A DNA stretch of 64,000 nucleotides from a virus (Duplodnaviria > Caudoviricetes). Location: the IMG/VR virus record IMGVR_UViG_3300035501_000578, positions 1 through 64,000 of that record; one strand, 5' to 3'. Below are positions 34,301 to 42,498 of the stretch, piece by piece. A program made the translations under genes and the position numbers. Positions within the stretch are counted from its first letter, which is position 1, and every line of letters begins with the position of its first letter. The notes beneath the pieces are model-generated. The model saw only the letters and a list, made by a program, of their open reading frames with translations, was not told where the DNA came from and did not search any database.

Positions 34301-37300
34301 GCCGAAATTGCTCACAATAACGCAGTAGCACAGGAATGGCAGAATAAACCCAAATGTATTTGTTGCGGCTCAACAAACTTAAAGAAAATATCAGGATTAT
34401 CCAAAGCAGGCTCTGTCGCAGTTTGGGGTATATTCGCTGCTGGAAGAACGTCAAAAACTTGGCATTGTAATAATTGTGGAACGGAGTGGTAATTGTAAAT
34501 ATACTTGAAAACCTTGCGAGGGAGGAGTAACTATGCTCAATAAACAACAAGAAAAAGTATTAAAGTTTTTACTGTCTTTACCGAGAGATATTGATAATAC
34601 TGTAAGTGTCAGCAATAGTATGTGTACAATTCCTTCGAATATATCCGAAACGGAATTTATAACTATACTTAATTCATTAGAGCAGAATGGTTTTCTTAAA
34701 TTAAAATGGATTAACAAGAATCATGATAATCTAAATAATTATGTGACGATAACAATATTAAACGAAAATTACTTCAAAGAAAAGTCTGCCAATAATATAA
34801 AAAATTTAAAAGATAACATTAAATGGCTTATCCCTTTAATTATATCAATTCTTTCTTTGATATGGAATATTTGTAATACTATAATGTACTCATATTTAAA
34901 AGATTTTTTACTTAATAAGTGAGATTAAACTGCAAGTAATCCATATATTCCATATTATATTAACCAAAGAGATTGCTGAAATTATAATCCAAACAGTGTT
35001 TTTCATTGTGTATAATTCCTTTCATTTTTTATTTAATAAATTCTGTAGACTTGGGAATAAAACAGTTCACATGGCATTGTAAAGTAGTAGAGATTTTAAT
35101 AATTCAACAGTTCTAGACAATACAAAAGAGACATCCATAATAGATGTCTCTTTCAAATAGCAAAATAAAAATCATAGTGGGGATTATGCCATCCCAAATC
35201 AAATTAATCATAAACTCTCGAACAGATTATTGCGTGATGTTTATAAGTGTGATATAATCCGCATATCTTAAACATATGGGGGTGTATATATGAGCAAAGT
35301 ACAATTATCAGAAGAAAATCAAAAAATCAAGCAACAATTAATATGGGATTTTAATCGCTCAAAAATAAGTGCTAACAACTTTGATAAAGATATTGTAAAT
35401 TTGATAGCTGAAATGACGACACAAGCACTTCAACTATCACAAGAAAATCATAATCAATAGTATCACTATTTTCCCTTATTTACATACTTTAATGGATTCG
35501 CTACACAGTCTATTACTGTTTGTAAATCGTTAATATTATTTATATTTGTATCGCATACATATTTTGTAATTACATATTCGTACAGTAAATCCAGTAATTC
35601 ATCAGTAATATTTGGATTTATTGTACGAATTTTATCTTTTATCTCTTGAATTTTATCCATTTCTTAATTCCCCCCTTCATTTAATTTTAAAAGAATGATT
35701 TCTAAATTGATTGGTAATGTGAGAGTAGTACACAACAAAAGAAACAGTAATTTAAGGCAAGAAAAAAGAGCAGTTAAATTAACTGCTCATAAAAGTTTAC
35801 CGCAAAAAGCCTTTTTAATTAAAATTTACGTACCGTCCTATATGCTGATATTACACTAGATATAGGCTCTCTATTGGATTAGGGATAGGAATATATAAAG
35901 ACACCTTAGTTGGTGTCTTTTGTAGTTAAAGCATAACTTATTGTTTCTATTATATTTCCTAAATTATCATATATTTCTAATTTTTCAACTAACTTGAAAT
36001 TTTCTATATCTACATAATCCATAAGTGCTGATTGTTTGGATATTAAAACAGTAAGAGGGATATATTTATTATTTTCAAATCTGATGCCAATATTCATACC
36101 ATTATTATTTCCACTGTTATTATAAAGAGTGCGATATAGAATATAATCCATTTCGACATTATTAGTATTTTTCACTTTACCAGAAGGTATATAAAACGCA
36201 GTACCTTTTCTTAAAGTATTATATGTACAAGAAAACATTGCAAGTCTTTTCTTTTGTTTTTTAAATCTTGTTTTGATTGCATCATTAATTTTAAAATCTG
36301 AGAATGATAAACCGCTATCAATTTTTTGGAAGAATTCGCAATTCTTTATATGATTATCTATATGTTGAATACCTAGCATATGATAAATTCCCCATTCTTC
36401 AAATTCTACCGTTATGATAGTATTATCAGAAAAATGATATACAAATTTTCGTGGTAATAAATAAGTACATGAGAAATCTTTATATAGTCCTAACGATATA
36501 TCTTTTAATAATGGTATATTATCTAAGTTTAACAAATCTTCTTTTGAAAGCATCGTTCTTCTCCATATAAAAAGCGTCTAGTATAAAAAACTAGACGCTT
36601 ATAAAACTTCTTAAATTGGACAGCGTCCTGTTTTACAGGCTGTGCTATGGTAGTTTCATGTCCCCCAATAGGGAAGATGAGCTGTCCCATTCACCTTTAC
36701 TTTGGATAAACCAGGCATTTCTCCTAGAAATCACTAGACTTCTTATCTATAATATACACGAATATCGCAGAACATACAATCGAACATATTGTGAATTTTT
36801 TGTTAACAAAATAATTGTTACTTAAATATTCTTATTCAACATTTCTTTAACTTCGTCAAAATTTTTACCGCTTTCCTGAATTAATTCATATAGTTCTTCC
36901 AGCTTGCTCATTTTGATTTGTTCTTCTAGTTCTATTTTTGTTTGCTTTAGTTTGCTGAGTGAATCTTCCATATTATTTATCTCTATAGTTATTTTACTTA
37001 ATTGTTCTTCCAAAGATATATTTTTCTTTCCTCTTGCCATTTTGAATTACTTCCTTATAAATATGATAATGAGAGAGTAGCATATAATATACTATTTTGT
37101 AAATAAAAACAGAACGCAATATACGACAATTATTTTAATACTATAATACATTATATGTGAAAAAACTATGAATAAATAACTAAATAGCTTATGTATTTTT
37201 TATTATATCAAAATATAAATATAACAAATATTTATAAGTTTTTCTCGTTAGACGAAACACTACGTCCAAATACATTACTTAAACTTATTAAAAATCGCAA

Positions 37301-40300
37301 TGTACACTATGCATTATAAGCAGATGCTACATTATGGCTGTAGCCTACTCAAAGGATGGGTATGTCTGTGGGGATTGCTCTCTATACAATTTTAAATTGT
37401 ACAAAATCCTTTATATATACGATTACACTCTAAAAAGAGTGGAGTGCCGTCCTGCTCGTTATCTGTTGTCAATAGCACTTAGGCTTATATATCAGTTCTC
37501 ACCAATTTTCCCGTATGCCAACATAATCAATTTTTTCTACTTTCGTAACCTCATCCGCAAAAATAGGGATTACGGTTTGATATGTATTCCAGTGATAATC
37601 AAAAAGATTACCAGAAGGCTAATTGAACTTAGCCAAACTTTCAAGCATTTACTCCTTCATGTTTAGTTTATACTCCGCTAAAAGTGTTTGCAGAGTCTTA
37701 TTAAAAACTCCATGTATCCATAGACTTGTTATAACGCCATTATGTTATTTTCTTATCTACGATTACCCAATTAAAAACTATAGGCGAGTTTATTAATTTT
37801 TGTCGCTCTAATGAGCCAAGTAAAGTTTTTAACGAACGCTGTTATACCTATTCCGGCAATAACAGTTTTTAATGACAGAAAATTTTCTGCCAAAAATCCA
37901 ACTACTTCTGATAATGTTGTTAAATCGTCAACAGCATCACCAAGAGTACCACGATCTATCATGGACTGAAATGTACCTGTCCACGTTTCTTTCAGTGCAT
38001 TAATTTTATATTCGAGTGAATTTTCAATAATGCTCATTTCGGCATCTGCTGAACCGGCTGCATTTTCCATATTCTCCATTGCTTGTTCTGCTGCTGAGAA
38101 GTTGGTAAGCAATCCGGCTACTACTTGTCCGTTACGCTTTCCGGCTAGCTTTTCTAAGAGTTGAGCCTGGGTTTTGTCGGAAAGGTCTGAATAGATCTCG
38201 GATATCTCTTTTAATCAATCTGTTACTTTCATCATATTTTTTATATGATTACTGACCATATATAAATATGGCGGTATATCATTTCTGGTATACTCTGTGA
38301 TTTCTTTTTAGATTATATTCACATGTTCGGACTGTATATTAACGTTTCCTAAATAGGAGAGCGTAACAACTTCACATAACATATCACTATGCTATGCCCG
38401 CAGTCTCTAGGGATTCTTGATTTAATATTCTAGTTATTTCTTTATTAATTATGTTTTTATATGTATCGTCTTTTACAGACCAATAAGGTATCTCTATATA
38501 ATTATACCCATTATTTATCGCAAAATTTTTCTTTTGATTGTCTTTCCATTTTTGATATTTAAATTCTTCTTCTGGAGTTTTTCCTGATTTTTTCGATTGT
38601 GTTATATGCCATCCACATAATTCATAATGTTGAATACCATGAACTTCAATAATAATTTTTAATTCTTTTATTTCATTATCAAAAGGCATTTTATACCCTG
38701 AAATGGGATTAATTGGTATTATAGAACAATTATATTCATGAAGAACCGTATAACCAAATGTTTCAAGATATAATCTTACTTTTTCTTCTAAGAAAGATTC
38801 CTTTCTTTCTCTCACACAATATATACAATTACGTGAATGATTTGCTGAATAATCAGATATTGTTTGCATATAATCATTATGTTTTCCGGCTCTACATTTT
38901 AACCATACTTTTTCTTTTGAAGAATAAGCATAATCAAAAGGTGTTTTGTCATTTTTATCAGACCAAATATCAAGTATTTCAGGGACTTGACTCCCTAAAC
39001 TATCCAATGGATGTATTAATTTTCTTGAACAATATGGACATGGAGCATCAGCAGAATAATAATTATTTGGATGTGTATAAAAATTATGATATTCTACCCT
39101 TTGACATTTTAAATGTACTTTAACATCATTTGTAGATTTAGATATTTTAAACGGATCAATAGTATTATCATCACACCAATATTTATCAAGCCAATCTTCA
39201 CCATATTTATTGATATTGTATTGTGCAAAAGAATCTTCTTTATAAACAATTTTTGAAACGCAAGCTGGGCATCTTTCACCTCTATAAAAATTATCAGGAG
39301 AAATTAAATAGTCTTCATGATAATTTTTCTCTTGACATTTTATATAAACTTTCTTACCAGAACATTTGTCAAATTCAAAAGGTGACTTGGAATTCTTTTT
39401 AGACCAATAATCATTAATTGCGTTATTTCCGAAATTTTTAATTAAATAATACCCAAATGAATTTATATATTTTTTATATGGATCTTGATTTTTATTTGGA
39501 TTAGTAATGTATTGAATCGGATAAAAATAAGAATATAATTCAAATTTAAACCAATATTTTTTAGCAGTACATTTAGATATGTAATGTATATCGTCATTTA
39601 AAGATTTGTCCCATGCTTCAATCAAATCTTGTCTTTTATTCTCTATACACCATTGGTAAAAAGAATTACATTGTGGACAAATACAATCTTTTGAAAACAC
39701 TAAGTTACTAATACCTTTTTGAAAACTTTCATGAATATTCTTTTTACATTTAAAATAATAATATTTTTTGGTTTTATGTGATATGTCTTTTGGGGATATA
39801 TTATTTTTATCATAATCCCATAATTCTAAATAATTTTCTTTTCCGTTTTCTATACACCAATCGTAAAATGATTTACTTCTTTTTCTTAACATAATTAAAT
39901 TCCTTTCATTTACTAAATTTTCGCATTAAAAAAGAGCAGTCACTTATTTGACCACTCTTGCATCGCTTTCGCTAATTTTTCATTTTTTATATACACCCAA
40001 AACATCTTTTTTGTTTCTGGATGTAATCCAACAATTTCATATTTTATCCCTTTAGAATAAAAAAAATCTCTCATAGGAATAGAATAACATGGGAATAAAT
40101 TTGAATTTTTCAATTAAATCAAGCCTTTCCTCGGTCTGAACTATCTCTAGCCTTTAACCGATATAGTTGTTATCAATGTGTTTACGCACAAAGCATATAG
40201 CTTTCGCTATATGGAGACATATAGTTTATCTCATATGTAGATTTGTATGTCTGTTTCGTTGAATCAGTAAATAAACTAATTCCTCCAGGTGTTTTTGCAG

Positions 40301-42498
40301 TTTTTGTTAAATCAGCAATATCGCCTGAAATATTTTCAAGGTCTTCTGATAATTCTTCGGTTTCTTCATCATACATTGTATTACTTTCGGCAACCGACAA
40401 CCTACATACCATATTTTAATATGGCGATCAGTCATTTCTGGCTGATTCTCACATTTCTTTATATTGGGATTATAGTGTGAGATTGGACTGTATATTCATC
40501 CTAAAAAATAGGAGATTAACTTCAACATATATGTTTCCATATATATCCCGCAGTCTCTGAGGATTCTTATAACATAGATTACATTATATGTTACAAATCT
40601 TTCCTAAGTCTCTGATGTCCCTCATCCTTTGACTTATATAGTTAATATCCGTATTTATTTTAAGCGCATACGGCACATACATTACTGTATATGGAGGCAG
40701 TGATGAATTTACCTCGAATACGCATAGCCAGTGTTTTAAAAGCTGTACCAGTACTCTCTGCATTTCTGGTGATCTCAACGGAAGCACTCTCAAGGGCTAT
40801 TGTTTGCTCAAGCGAGTTGTTTGCTTCAGCCATAGCAGCAGAAGAACGTGTCAACATATCAACTATTTCTTCGTTGCTAGTCGCTGCTGTGTTTCCGATG
40901 ATATTTATATTGTCTAATATTTCACGTTTAACATCATCTACTTCAATTCCAAAGGCTTTCATGGTTGAAACCATTCCGTCCGTAGCCGTATCTACATCCA
41001 TCCCCGGAGAGATACTAGCAAACTGAGAACTTAATTTAGCCATCTCAGTAGCGGCTTCACCACTTGAATATCCAAGCCTAGACCAAGCACTTGCCTGATC
41101 AATAATTTCTTCAGTGGTTACACCCATTTGTTTTGCCACATCATTTGCAGAGTAGTAGAAATCATTTAACTCCGATGTGGACATAGTAGTAGTTTTCTGC
41201 AAGTCAACTAAAGCTGTATCCAAGTCAACTACTGTGGTTATAGCTTCCTTAACATATCCAATTGCCCGATACCAACTAAAATACATACTAACAAGCGATG
41301 AAATATTATTATATAGAGCCTTACTCTTAAATATATCAATCAGCCGTTTACCTTCATTACCAGCCGCCTTTTCAGCAGAAACAATGCCGTAAAAACCAGA
41401 CCTTATTTCTTCAAATGGTGCATCAGAACCCATTGTCTTTAACATACTAATATATGTTTCAATTTGTTGTTGCGCTTCTTTAGAAAAATTAGTATTCCTG
41501 CTTAGAGTATCCTGCATTTTATTTATAAATTTAAGTCTGCTCTCTAATGTAGAACCTTTATCTCCAGCAGTCATTGATTTAAAGATCTGTAATAATTCAT
41601 TACCTCTAGTTTGTGCTGTTTTTAATTGGTCGAGTTCAGTGTCAGTAATTAAATCAATAGGTTTAGAAGTAATTTTACGAATAGTTTCATTTATCTGATT
41701 TAATTTATCTAAAGATGCTTGATAATTACTGTTTTGATTTTCTGCCTTCGGTTTTGCCGAATATGTATTATAAGCATTTTGAAATTTTTTAAGAGAAGAT
41801 GAAGCTTCTTCAATTGCTTGAGCTTCTTTTGTTACGTTATCAGAAGTAGTAGTAGCAGATGATGATACATTATTATTAGCACTGGCAAATTGTTCTTTTG
41901 CACTAGATGCGTTTTTAGTTTGCTCTGCAAGATTACCCATAGCTTCAGCAGTAGCGTTTACACCAGATGTGTTTTCAGATGAAAGATTCGTTTTATTACC
42001 ACTTACTTTACTCTGAGCATCCGATAAATCCTTAGTAGCACTAGCAAGACCTTCTGTAGCTTTTTGTGCATTTTGAATCTGACTGACATTAGCATTTGCA
42101 TTCTTTCCAATGTTGCCAAAATCCGTATTGACTTCTGTAATATGTTTCGTCAGTGTAGTCAAAGAAGAGTCAATATTTTGGATAGAAGACAATAGACTTT
42201 TCGCACCTGAATTACCGTCTATCTTACCAAAAGCAGTACTTAAACTCTGTACCTCTGTTGTAATTGATTCTAGCTGTCCAGCTAATTTCTCAAACTGTTT
42301 AAAATCACCGGTATTATTGCCAAGACTTTTTAACATTTTATCAAGATTGGCAATAACACTTTCCAATTGTTCTTTGTTTACACCAATATCAATGGTATAT
42401 TTTTTATTATTTACTTCTCTTTCTAAAGTTTCTAATTGTTTTTGAGCTGTACTAATATCTAACTCTATTTTTTTCTGCCATGCAGATATTCCACTCAT
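25337..42498 (-). CDS. Tape measure protein in five segments, about 3021 aa; join(42498-40711,40373-40228,38215-37819,34035-28567,26602-25337)
   Basis: PhageMin_Tail-like LDTALVDLQKT region; junctions MRIRG|YDEET, TYEI|LKEIS, KNFT|QLRTI and SKD|LHDYQ all in frame (total 9066 nt). The third junction is inferred from guide pairing and is the least certain. Confidence 0.8.
26603..28566 (-). mobile_element. Group I intron (1964 nt) in TMP with endonuclease ORF in the P9 region
   Basis: P1 GAT|TAA/TTAGTC, TGCTGGAAAACCC, core TTCAACGACCAT and ATGATATGGTCT, terminal G before TTACATGAC. Confidence 0.85.
26619..28088 (-). CDS. Intron-encoded endonuclease: six Zn-ribbon repeats plus DUF559/Vsr-like nuclease
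   Basis: Repeats Y.NA.TPILH.C...W...P.N.L.G.GCP.C; PFDFY...IAIEYDGKQH. Confidence 0.85.
   Translation of the reverse strand: MGVTKTHEEYVAELAIKNPDIEVIGEYSGVHNKILHRCKKDDYIWEVTPDNILRGKGCPKCSKHIKFTHEDYVNELALTHPNIQVMEEYINNNTPIMHKCLIHNIEWKSVPATVKNGYGCKECVKEYMREKRVKSRDEYIEQLNLINPNIMLIGDYINAHTPTLHRCLIDGYEWMLKPNNALSGKGCPNCYGNIKKNQLEYVEELSLKNPNLEVLEDYINAKTPILHRCKRHNIKWKISPDNALHGYGCKECLREKIGEKNSKTHEQYVKELKEINPNIIVLGEYIDAKTPILHRCLIDGYEWMVRPDNVLCGTGCPKCAGNIKKTHEEYVYELSCINPYIKVIEKYIDSVTPILHECLIDGYQWYAAPTNLLSGCGCPQCHESSGERQIRTWLEKHDVLYDFQKRFSDCKDINSLPFDFYLPDYNIAIEYDGKQHFEPIEYFGGVVAFERTVKHDNIKNNYCKNNGISLLRIPYNKNVEEELNNFLFI
34033..34061 (+). promoter_or_regulatory. Sigma-A promoter of the 34091 cargo gene, overlapping a divergent minus-strand TATAAT (34054-34049)
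   Basis: TTGCTT-N17-TATAAT then AGGAGG RBS; ATTATA-G-TATAAT dyad. Confidence 0.65.
34091..34492 (+). CDS. Cargo: Zn-ribbon protein
   Basis: PKCICCGSTNLKKIS...KTWHCNNCG; own promoter and RBS. Confidence 0.8.
   Translation: MTPRNLMDKICKEADENTEFYKKISNVAESRDKLKCIELLIQHYNCDFDNARMVIDYIIDGTPLPSDLSPAEIAHNNAVAQEWQNKPKCICCGSTNLKKISGLSKAGSVAVWGIFAAGRTSKTWHCNNCGTEW
34533..34922 (+). CDS. Cargo: winged-helix-like protein with C-terminal transmembrane helix
   Basis: LNSLEQNGFL motif; WLIPLIISILSLIWNI; RBS GGAGG. Confidence 0.7.
   Translation: MLNKQQEKVLKFLLSLPRDIDNTVSVSNSMCTIPSNISETEFITILNSLEQNGFLKLKWINKNHDNLNNYVTITILNENYFKEKSANNIKNLKDNIKWLIPLIISILSLIWNICNTIMYSYLKDFLLNK
34908..35006 (-). CDS. Cargo: 32-aa hydrophobic peptide
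   Basis: Hand translation MKNTVWIIISAISLVNIIWNIWITCSLISLIK; GAAAGGA RBS. Confidence 0.5.
   Translation of the reverse strand: MKNTVWIIISAISLVNIIWNIWITCSLISLIK
35124..35153. terminator. Bidirectional-type intrinsic terminator inside the cargo
   Basis: AAAAGAGACATC-cataata-GATGTCTCTTT. Confidence 0.6.
35290..35460 (+). CDS. Cargo: 56-aa hypothetical protein
   Basis: MSKVQLSEENQKIK...; promoter TTGCGT-N17-TATAAT at 35230-35258 and GGGGG RBS. Confidence 0.6.
   Translation: MSKVQLSEENQKIKQQLIWDFNRSKISANNFDKDIVNLIAEMTTQALQLSQENHNQ
35466..35660 (-). CDS. Cargo: 64-aa hypothetical protein
   Basis: AGGGGG RBS; convergent with 35290-35460. Confidence 0.55.
   Translation of the reverse strand: MDKIQEIKDKIRTINPNITDELLDLLYEYVITKYVCDTNINNINDLQTVIDCVANPLKYVNKGK
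35762..35788 (-). terminator. Intrinsic terminator downstream of the PBECR4-like gene
   Basis: GAGCAGTT-aattt-AACTGCTC-TTTTTT on the minus strand. Confidence 0.7.
35906..36553 (-). CDS. Cargo: PBECR4-like (Barnase-EndoU-ColicinE5/D-RelE superfamily) putative RNase toxin
   Basis: Y.F.....I.VEF....IYHMLGIQH pattern and C-terminal YIPLT strand; recognised by motif only. Confidence 0.55.
   Translation of the reverse strand: MLSKEDLLNLDNIPLLKDISLGLYKDFSCTYLLPRKFVYHFSDNTIITVEFEEWGIYHMLGIQHIDNHIKNCEFFQKIDSGLSFSDFKINDAIKTRFKKQKKRLAMFSCTYNTLRKGTAFYIPSGKVKNTNNVEMDYILYRTLYNNSGNNNGMNIGIRFENNKYIPLTVLISKQSALMDYVDIENFKLVEKLEIYDNLGNIIETISYALTTKDTN
36569..36600 (-). terminator. Terminator between the cloverleaf RNA and the nuclease gene
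   Basis: AAGCGTCTAG-loop-CTAGACGCTTTTT immediately upstream of the RBS. Confidence 0.7.
36618..36688 (-). ncRNA. Candidate cloverleaf-shaped antitoxin RNA
   Basis: 7-bp closing stem GGACAGC/GCTGTCC enclosing three arms; promoter TTGTAT-N17-TATATT at 36779-36751. Confidence 0.45.
36822..37040 (-). CDS. Cargo: 72-aa basic-tailed coiled-coil protein
   Basis: MARGKK then coiled coil ending LEELYELIQESGKNFDEV; AAGGAAG RBS. Confidence 0.7.
   Translation of the reverse strand: MARGKKNISLEEQLSKITIEINNMEDSLSKLKQTKIELEEQIKMSKLEELYELIQESGKNFDEVKEMLNKNI
37240..37818 (-). ncRNA. Large (~580 nt) structured RNA at the 5' end of the TMP interruption, containing the guide
   Basis: More than ten hairpins found by eye plus long-range complementarities; GC-richer than flanks; no credible sense ORF. 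Confidence 0.65.
38216..40227 (-). mobile_element. Group I intron (2012 nt) in TMP with endonuclease ORF
   Basis: P1 GAGAT/GTCTC, core TAGAGACTGCGGG and AATATACAGTCC, terminal G before ATTAAAAGAG. Confidence 0.88.
38387..39892 (-). CDS. Intron-encoded endonuclease: treble-clef/Zn-ribbon repeats plus DUF559/Vsr-like nuclease
   Basis: W...KN...P.......S.KKV..KC...H...CP.C repeats; PFDN...IIEVHGIQHY; C-terminus overlaps P7. Confidence 0.85.
   Translation of the reverse strand: MLRKRSKSFYDWCIENGKENYLELWDYDKNNISPKDISHKTKKYYYFKCKKNIHESFQKGISNLVFSKDCICPQCNSFYQWCIENKRQDLIEAWDKSLNDDIHYISKCTAKKYWFKFELYSYFYPIQYITNPNKNQDPYKKYINSFGYYLIKNFGNNAINDYWSKKNSKSPFEFDKCSGKKVYIKCQEKNYHEDYLISPDNFYRGERCPACVSKIVYKEDSFAQYNINKYGEDWLDKYWCDDNTIDPFKISKSTNDVKVHLKCQRVEYHNFYTHPNNYYSADAPCPYCSRKLIHPLDSLGSQVPEILDIWSDKNDKTPFDYAYSSKEKVWLKCRAGKHNDYMQTISDYSANHSRNCIYCVRERKESFLEEKVRLYLETFGYTVLHEYNCSIIPINPISGYKMPFDNEIKELKIIIEVHGIQHYELCGWHITQSKKSGKTPEEEFKYQKWKDNQKKNFAINNGYNYIEIPYWSVKDDTYKNIINKEITRILNQESLETAGIA
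40374..40710 (-). mobile_element. Group I intron (337 nt, no ORF) in TMP
   Basis: P1 GAGGT/GCCTC, P10 TTCATCA/TGATGAA, core TCAGAGACTGCGGG and AATATACAGTCC, terminal G. Confidence 0.9.

Follow-up and report, generated by a model that had tools for sequence, protein, structure and literature searches.

How does a phage make one tail tape measure protein from a gene that lies in pieces? The question arises in the window analyzed here, a stretch low in G+C, with almost all of its genes on the minus strand, that makes up the first 64 kb of the 112-kb phage record IMGVR_UViG_3300035501_000578 in IMG/VR. The tape measure gene is split into several pieces, two of which are separated by 3783 nt. The opening ~580 nt of this gap, non-coding and read on the minus strand, had been described from the letters alone, without database searches (hereafter, the sequence-only reading), as an ornate RNA and possibly a new large ribozyme class. 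The stretch is indeed structured and conserved; instead of a new class, it has the architecture of a group I intron. We conclude that 37818-37246 is very probably the complete group I core of a 3783-nt intron, 37818-34036, that splits the tape measure gene, with splicing in cis as the default.

37819..38211, minus strand: tape measure exon upstream of the intron, 131 codons (phrog_4211 positions 816-948, E 8.8e-16)
37818-34036, minus strand: the gap of 3783 nt, which is the proposed intron
34035 to 28564, minus strand: tape measure 3' frame, open, 1823 codons; its first 200 residues match tape measure families

Splice sites and guide pairings

The upstream exon ends in ...FVKNFT, its final codon being ACU (37821-37819), and its last five bases pair with an internal guide sequence to form a 5-bp P1, UUACU/GGUAA, with a U.G wobble at the cleavage site. 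Immediately adjoining GGUAA is a second, longer guide that begins ~30 nt into the gap and matches the start of the 3' exon over 22 nt, with 21 Watson-Crick pairs and one G.U. The read-through frame of the upstream exon stops within this guide, at a UAA (37773-37771). The intron begins UGGCU and ends AAG, so that a G stands directly before the 3' exon. This arrangement of guide, exon ends, and terminal G is the P1, P10, and omega G layout of group I introns.

37823-37819, minus strand: exon strand of P1, UUACU, the last five bases of the upstream exon
37805..37816, minus strand: L1 hairpin GCUC/GAGC, directly after the 5' splice site
37768..37789, minus strand: P10 guide, 22 nt, adjoining GGUAA
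37763..37767, minus strand: internal guide sequence GGUAA, the 3' strand of P1; its first G pairs with the last exon base as U.G
34036, minus strand: terminal (omega) G of the intron
34014..34035, minus strand: P10 target, the first 22 nt of the 3' exon

Relatives of this intron, whose contigs carry L-numbers below, keep these pairings with other sequences. U.G is found at the 5' splice site in 19/19 sequences, while position -2 of P1 is AU in 10, GC in 5, and CG in 4, and position -3 is GC in 15 and AU in 3. Within the closest subclade, P1 occurs as GGUAA/UUACU, GUCAA/UUGAU, GGCGA/UUGCU, and GCCAA/UUGGU. The L1 hairpin is present in all variants with differing sequences (UAACUC/GAGUUA, GUGAU/AUCAC, CGA/UCG).

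The P10 guides of relatives also differ in sequence, and each is complementary to its own 3' exon. Compared with 22 bp in the window, P10 measures 21 bp in both L097 (intron ~7.1 kb) and L104 (~1.2 kb), 14 bp or more in L086, L100, and L101, ~16 bp with bulges in L035, 10 + 4 bp in L006 and L058, and 7-8 bp plus a few in L003 and L004. The usual P10 of group I introns is a few base pairs, and the 14-22 bp of this family are much longer. In the 12 listed loci with a mapped 3' splice site, the base before the 3' exon is G, and L101 matches L100.

The predicted ligation product, ...GITAFVKNFT joined to QLRTIGES..., was compared with the intron-less homologue P0022, which reads ...GITAFIKNFS followed by KLKEIGD... 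at this place, and the predicted ligated junctions of relatives have the motif x-L-(K/R)-x-(I/L)-G in common. Because BLASTP of the 3' exon start against the long intron-less homologues P0003, P0010, and P0022 returned only weak co-linear matches, the junction is placed by this short motif and the reading frame. The sequence-only reading had cast the RNA as the engine that rejoins the tape measure gene. Leaving aside the new class that it attached to this role, the role itself is very probably right, because the RNA carries a guide that matches both ends to be joined and the reading frame picks up exactly behind the terminal G.

Fold and covariation of the core

The minimum free energy z-score of the stretch is only -2.15, and the main support for an RNA fold is comparative. 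Alignment A2, comprising 19 variants, was folded with RNAalifold, which returned P2, P2.1, P3, P4, P5, P6, and P8 unprompted, with compensatory changes in 35 of 44 pairs. In this topology P4-P5 and P6 lie inside P3, and P8 follows directly after P3'. P1 (exon positions -1 to -5 with the guide) and the P7 pseudoknot were then added, giving 55 modeled pairs. In this model 94.0% of cells are paired, compared with 72.0 +/- 0.9 after shuffling (0/500 shuffles reach the observed value) and 39-46% when the partners are slid. Both sides change in 42 of the 55 pairs, the covariation score is 0.626 versus 0.211, and every helix of the model is present in the window's own sequence. Position 1 of the intron is window position 37818.

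37246..37818, minus strand: group I ribozyme core, intron positions 1-573 (from the family alignment and covariation)
37719..37761, minus strand: P2 (CGUAGAU/GUCUAUG) around P2.1 (AUAAC/GUUAU), with the conserved P2.1 loop AUAAUGGC
37672..37696, minus strand: subclade-specific hairpin ACUCUGC/GCGGAGU between P2 and P3
37653..37657, minus strand: P3 5' strand AAGGA, partner UCCUU at 37356-37352; 100% paired, two covarying pairs
37453..37647, minus strand: P4, UGCUUG (37647-37642) with CGAGCA (37458-37453), which are the P and Q elements, around P5
37369..37452, minus strand: P6 and its extension (from RNAalifold and pair counts)
37318..37350, minus strand: P8, in which 10/12 pairs covary

Compensatory changes occur in 7/7 pairs of P2 and 4/5 of P2.1. 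P4 is 100% paired with four covarying pairs, and P5, which has three, carries a large extension inside P4 with a GAAA-tetraloop hairpin. The conserved elements of the window's intron are P (AAAUGCUUGAAA), Q (AACGAGCAG), and R (CACAGACAUACC), and P3' (UCCUU) stands directly after R. The U.G of P1, P10, omega G, helices P3 to P8 in canonical order, the P3/P7 pseudoknot, and the P, Q, and R elements are the defining architecture of group I introns.

The local hairpins listed in the sequence-only reading all exist, and most are kept with compensatory changes. GCUACA/UGUAGC is inner P8, while UACAUUGC/GUAAUGUA and UUGGACG/CGUCUAA correspond to two hairpins, hp1 and hp2, that are taken up with P7 below. 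The close relatives L082, L087, and L088 retain ACUCUGC/GCGGAGU, which in L087 carries a compensated change, and CCGUAA/UUGCGG is replaced by CCAAAA/UUUUGG in L082. GGCUAA/UUAGCC and UGGUAAUC/GAUUAUCA are present in the P5 extension, where relatives have other hairpins, and CACUCU/AGAGUG is present in the P6 extension. One hairpin, AGUGCU/GGCACU, was rejected: it is not kept in L082, L087, or L088 and would enclose the 3' strand of P4. The long-range pairing GUCUAUGG/CCACAGAC likewise found no support, since GUCUAUG is the 3' strand of P2, paired with CGUAGAU in a helix whose pairs all covary, and CCACAGAC is the R element (J6/7 and the P7 5' strand); P2 covariation and the position of R also exclude this pairing as a candidate for P3. 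The suggested loop-loop kiss fared better. The P8 loop GCCAU (37338-37334) lies opposite AUGGC (37740-37736) in the P2.1 loop, and its GGC/GCC portion is conserved with a joint change to GGU/ACC in L095 and L115, which supports the contact between the two loops.

P7 and the proposed guanosine site

The absence of the group I P7 order had been part of the argument for a new class, but a lack of P7 elements is not borne out. R is present with P3' directly after it, together with an S-like AUGCAUAGU whose final C(C/G) is absent in place. The register of P7 is fixed because its inner pairs change on both sides between clades; this holds for three of the four (494/551, 495/550, and once 492/552), and 496/549 is invariant. 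P7 is canonical in clade A, with G-C in 13/13 sequences, a bulged A, and an outer pair that covaries (G-C in 9, A-U in 4), and a sister subclade has textbook R and S (CAGAGACUACC ... UAUAGUCC).

37361..37368, minus strand: R element and P7 5' strand, namely C451, A452 (bulge), G453, A454, C455, A456 (bulge), U457, A458
37306..37309, minus strand: inner P7 3' strand UAGU, invariant within the subclade
37248..37305, minus strand: hp1 (37305-37270) and hp2 (37269-37248), apparently inserted in the P7 3' strand
37246..37247, minus strand: proposed outer P7 3' strand CG, giving G453-C572 and the neighbor C451-G573

In the window's subclade the order is UAGU, hp1, hp2, and an invariant C. The first hairpin is closed by the base after UAGU (closing pair G-C in 11, G.U in 11, A-U in 1) and is 99% paired in 23 relatives, with 6/9 pairs covarying; the second covaries within the subclade formed by the window's intron and its closest relatives. 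The invariant C after hp2 can pair with the G of the R element in 23/23 sequences. Its neighbor at R position 451 is C-G in 14 sequences, G-C in L097 (a compensatory change), and unpaired in 8 of the L006 type. In the alignment-based model, the 3' strand of P7 therefore seems to be broken by two hairpins where the guanosine-binding pair would form, and a P7 split in this way would restore C451-G573, the bulged A452, and G453-C572 as the guanosine pair.

Three other candidates for P7 were dropped. GCAAU/AUUGC has a 3' arm that is part of hp1, the register CUAC/GUGG (AUAC/GUGU in the window) is broken in L071 and L072, and the downstream GUCU (37253-37250), tried as the 3' strand, is part of hp2.

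Relation to a recognized group I intron

The Rfam group I model, RF00028, scores another intron in contig L091 (3887-4194) at 70.9 bits (E 4.7e-16). A profile hidden Markov model (HMM) of the tape measure family matches this intron over the P4-P5 extension with E 3e-11, and L006 is 75% identical to it over 91 nt. The L091 intron resembles the family in the logic of P, Q, R, and S and in the motif of the P5 extension common to both, CUACAACGUAA...GCGUGAAUGUUGCGAAAGC. Unlike the family, it is compact (~310 nt), has a contiguous S (AAGAUAUAGUC), and is recognized by Rfam. The L091 contig holds this compact intron and a family member together.

A family at one tape measure codon

The sequence-only reading had suggested collecting homologues downstream of tape measure 5' halves, and such RNAs were found, with covariation support among the 19 variants, in upwards of 60 contigs of phages and prophages, which come from gut samples of humans and animals and from Robinsoniella and Clostridia genomes.

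Family contigs: L003, L004, L006-L020, L027, L035-L041, L050, L058-L060, L068-L118

A profile-free search with the 131-residue exon against 1.8 billion proteins gave 2268 matches. Among the best 150 of these, ~60 (about 40%) stop no more than 34 residues from the point that aligns with the splice site, after ...K-N-(F/L/V)-(D/G/T), and others, including P0022, run through. Also within the best 150, subsets share other read-through tails after this point (RDKM.., GNKMHFPMNILDNIHNLLWIQRFRVC, and RTKMFVLTNMP), which may mark other intron families at the same site. Contigs were obtained for four of the truncated proteins, and each has the 5' half, ~450-500 nt without genes, one or more small genes of which the last is antisense, and then the 3' half; L006 additionally has SPbeta-type tail genes (YomU/V/W Pfam families).

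Motif scans added 14 IMG/VR phage contigs, 12 contigs of the closer clade, 37 metagenome contigs (several labeled human gut), and the genomes of Robinsoniella peoriensis, an uncultured Robinsoniella, and a Clostridia metagenome-assembled genome. With the window's sequence left out of the family HMM, the sole nhmmer match in the 112-kb genome was 37827-37297 (E 3.5e-21). Within its own genome, blastn and nhmmer with the core stretch turned up no paralogue in the other introns; blastn against the phage collection likewise gave no match, and a related-locus search with the exon proteins and P0022 found no relatives.

Across the family, introns of 0.9-7.1 kb have the same core, and the 3' splice site lies between 0.66 and 6.7 kb from R. 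In L097, L104, L086, L100, and L106 the core and guide stay constant, and the cargo is exchangeable and differs greatly in size. The intron interior thus acts as a variable gene-cargo site in an essential gene.

Cargo and neighboring intervening sequences

Between the core and the 3' splice site lies a cargo of small genes. The gene nearest the splice site is antisense to the intron, and a gene of this kind starts 14-96 nt from the 3' splice site in 12/13 loci of both clades. It encodes a protein of 100-240 residues with a conserved C-terminal zinc-ribbon motif, CPxCxSTN..KIS...HCNNCGxxW; the window's copy has a faint IS1595-type zinc-ribbon match (E 0.021). Searches of six cargo proteins against Pfam, PHROGs, and PADLOC returned nothing meaningful, and domain searches found no homing endonuclease in the cargo.

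34037..37245, both strands: cargo between the core and the 3' splice site, with small genes
34091-34492, plus strand: antisense zinc-ribbon gene
34533-34922, plus strand: cargo protein, 129 residues
35906-36553, minus strand: cargo protein, 215 residues
36822-37040, minus strand: cargo protein, 72 residues, predicted coiled coil

By eye, a TTGCTT hexamer (34033-34038) lies across the splice site, 17 nt before a TATAAT (34056-34061); its TTG is the complement of the exon CAA, and its C is the complement of omega G. Relatives have TTGCAT with a spacing of 16-17 nt. The arrangement scores below the threshold of the promoter scan. In L004 an A-run, hairpin, and U-run can be seen after the core, which the terminator scan did not call.

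From a 4.3-kb stretch compared with a gut metatranscriptome run, only 37455-37718, within the core, is represented there, by one identical contig of 264 nt. The run consists of contigs only and may include DNA carry-over, and its lack of cover over exon and cargo is uninformative on splicing; the contig is compatible with a stable excised intron RNA or with DNA carry-over.

Farther upstream, two more intervening sequences interrupt the same tape measure gene, at 38216-40227 and 40374-40710 on the minus strand, such that three splicing events would be needed for a full-length tape measure in this genome. One of the two encodes a 501-residue HNH/treble-clef endonuclease. Both show R/S-like CAGAGACUGCGGG ... 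AAUAUACAGUCC, and Rfam gave no match for either.

40660-42498: tape measure piece, 612 codons
38387-39892: insert with an HNH endonuclease, within the tape measure gene

Proposed splicing route and alternative readings

The pairings suggest a route by which the exons could be joined. The 5-bp P1, UUACU with GGUAA, would set the 5' splice site at its U.G wobble, and a guanosine bound in P7 would attack there. The 22 nt just 5' of the internal guide would base-pair with the 22 nt that open the 3' exon, and this extended P10 would capture a 3' splice site transcribed ~3.2 kb later. The terminal G (34036) would then take the same guanosine site and the exons would join to read ...FVKNFT followed by QLRTIGES..., yielding one full-length tape measure protein and removing the cargo with the intron. 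We infer catalysis by the core and a guanosine cofactor, and the default would be cis-splicing of a continuous, read-through late transcript. A more specific proposal is that a complete core, joined to the 5' exon and equipped with a 14-22 nt antisense guide, captures a distant (up to 7 kb) or separately transcribed 3' exon beyond cargo genes that are expressed independently, and builds its guanosine pocket from a hairpin-interrupted P7; taken as a whole, we regard this as rather unlikely.

Several observations count against a cis-spliced group I intron. In the canonical register, the guanosine-binding pair of the window's subclade would place G opposite G (6/6 sequences). The split-P7 model that would mend this draws on an invariant G-C and one compensatory event, with 8 sequences unpaired, and the decisive G-C pair, being invariant, cannot covary. 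The cargo has three terminator-like hairpins on the minus (sense) strand as well as genes transcribed against the direction of the intron, both of which speak against a simple, unbroken precursor from the host polymerase. Neither spliced RNA nor an intron-less DNA allele was seen, with contigs from a single RNA run available. Finally, RF00028 scores neither the window's RNA nor any relative, and Rfam searches of the whole window at the gathering threshold, and of 20 kb and the 751-nt stretch at E 10, gave chance-level matches only (HSUR, SmY). Because RF00028 also misses introns in the window that the sequence-only reading had called canonical, as well as every relative, this negative Rfam result is uninformative; RF00028 is a curated detector and not the definition of group I.

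The transcriptional points would be met if the same ribozyme worked in trans, with one transcript carrying the 5' exon and core and ending in the cargo, a second starting just before G34036, and P10 holding the two together. Throughout the family the guide by far exceeds the length that a cis intron would require, the whole core lies 5' of the cargo with only 14-96 nt between the antisense gene and the 3' splice site, and the core is unchanged in introns from 0.9 to 7.1 kb. The sense-strand hairpins and an RNA contig that covers the core only fit as well. We nonetheless consider trans-splicing unlikely. No convincing sense promoter precedes the 3' splice site in the window, where there is only a TATAAT without a -35 element in AT-rich DNA, and the promoter scan gave 33 promoter-like sites versus 29.4 in shuffles. 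Clade A relatives have no scan-detectable terminator after the core, and a free 5' exon would be held by just the 5 bp of P1. Late phage transcription also frequently reads through terminators. Splicing in cis is the reading that we prefer on inference.

If the element were instead a decayed intron that no longer splices, the tape measure would be made as two polypeptides or the phage would be defective, and the RNA would have no present function. The missing guanosine pair in the usual register of P7, a cargo without a homing endonuclease, and the lack of splicing evidence could all be read this way. A relic is very unlikely, however, given that P1 and P10 covary with the exons in the closest subclade, which needs ongoing selection, and that the core helices stay paired through compensatory changes. 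Both exon frames remain uninterrupted for more than 2400 codons. By direct reading, the window has no start codon or Shine-Dalgarno sequence just before the 3' exon, and the 3' exon frame is open for 110 codons upstream of its first listed start.

The view of the sequence-only reading, a new large ribozyme class or a ribosome-bypass element unrelated to groups I and II, could draw on the lack of any Rfam match and on the unusual P7. It is now highly improbable: nearly every architectural hallmark of group I is present and covarying, the family grades into members with textbook R and S, and it shares sequence with the L091 intron that Rfam scores as Intron_gpI. A group II intron was set aside as well, in agreement with the earlier observation that a GUGYG start and domain V are lacking; the ends are UGGCU and AAG, and Rfam gave no group II match. 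Scarcely credible is a DNA transposon inserted in the tape measure gene with the 22-bp match as its terminal inverted repeats, for although the repeat (21/22 identity) brackets 34014-37789 and the zinc-ribbon gene has its faint IS1595-type match, by direct reading the frame is not regained when the segment is cut out at the repeat ends, one arm is exon coding sequence, no target-site duplication was seen and no transposase found, and the complementarity persists in relatives through other sequences, G.U pairs, and bulges, which indicates constraint at the RNA level.

Significance and comparison with known systems

The claim of a new ribozyme class thus gives way to a concrete family, a large and previously unannotated set of group I introns at one conserved tape measure codon of gut Clostridia phages. 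The family is invisible to Rfam, and these phage tape measure genes are therefore routinely mis-called as two, with 'hypothetical' genes between them. It offers a natural system for asking how a group I ribozyme finds a distant 3' splice site, how far a guanosine site can be remodeled, and whether introns can shelter accessory genes inside phage genes that are essential.

Prophages of the Bacillus cereus group are already known to have group I introns, TMP-IVS1-3, in their tape measure genes (Tourasse and Kolsto 2008, PMC2504315). Like the window's intron, these are in-frame insertions in tape measure genes of Firmicutes prophages, with early in-frame stops. In the parts of that report available to us, and comparing by description only, there is no mention of multi-kb cargo free of endonucleases, a 14-22 bp P10, or an interrupted P7 (PMC2504315). 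We have not found described a family-wide P10 of 14-22 bp, a complete core upstream of up to ~6.7 kb of cargo, a conserved antisense gene at the 3' splice site, or an apparently split P7.

The phage T4 sunY (nrdD) intron, in work attributed to Michel et al. in 1992, reportedly has a remote 3' splice junction, a core that lies 5' of a long insertion, and a single sense open reading frame, and is said to need intron structure at its 3' terminus. The window's intron is similar in having its core 5' of a long insertion and a distant 3' splice site. It differs in that no conserved intron structure was identified at the 3' splice site, where the long P10 appears to act as the tether.

Trans-splicing group I introns of organelles, such as those of placozoan and lycophyte cox1, are broken in loops of the core, and the ribozyme reassembles from the pieces. 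The likeness, separately transcribed exons joined by RNA pairing, would hold only if the window's intron worked in trans; its core, unlike theirs, is whole, and only omega G and the exon would be supplied from elsewhere.

For the guanosine site, the closest parallel is the Tetrahymena large-subunit (LSU) intron, whose P7 contains C262-G312, the bulged A263, and G264-C311. R likewise reads C-A-G-A-C in the window, and the split-P7 model would give the same arrangement of pairs and bulge. In contrast to Tetrahymena, the 3'-strand partners proposed here lie ~60 nt past UAGU, beyond the two inserted hairpins.

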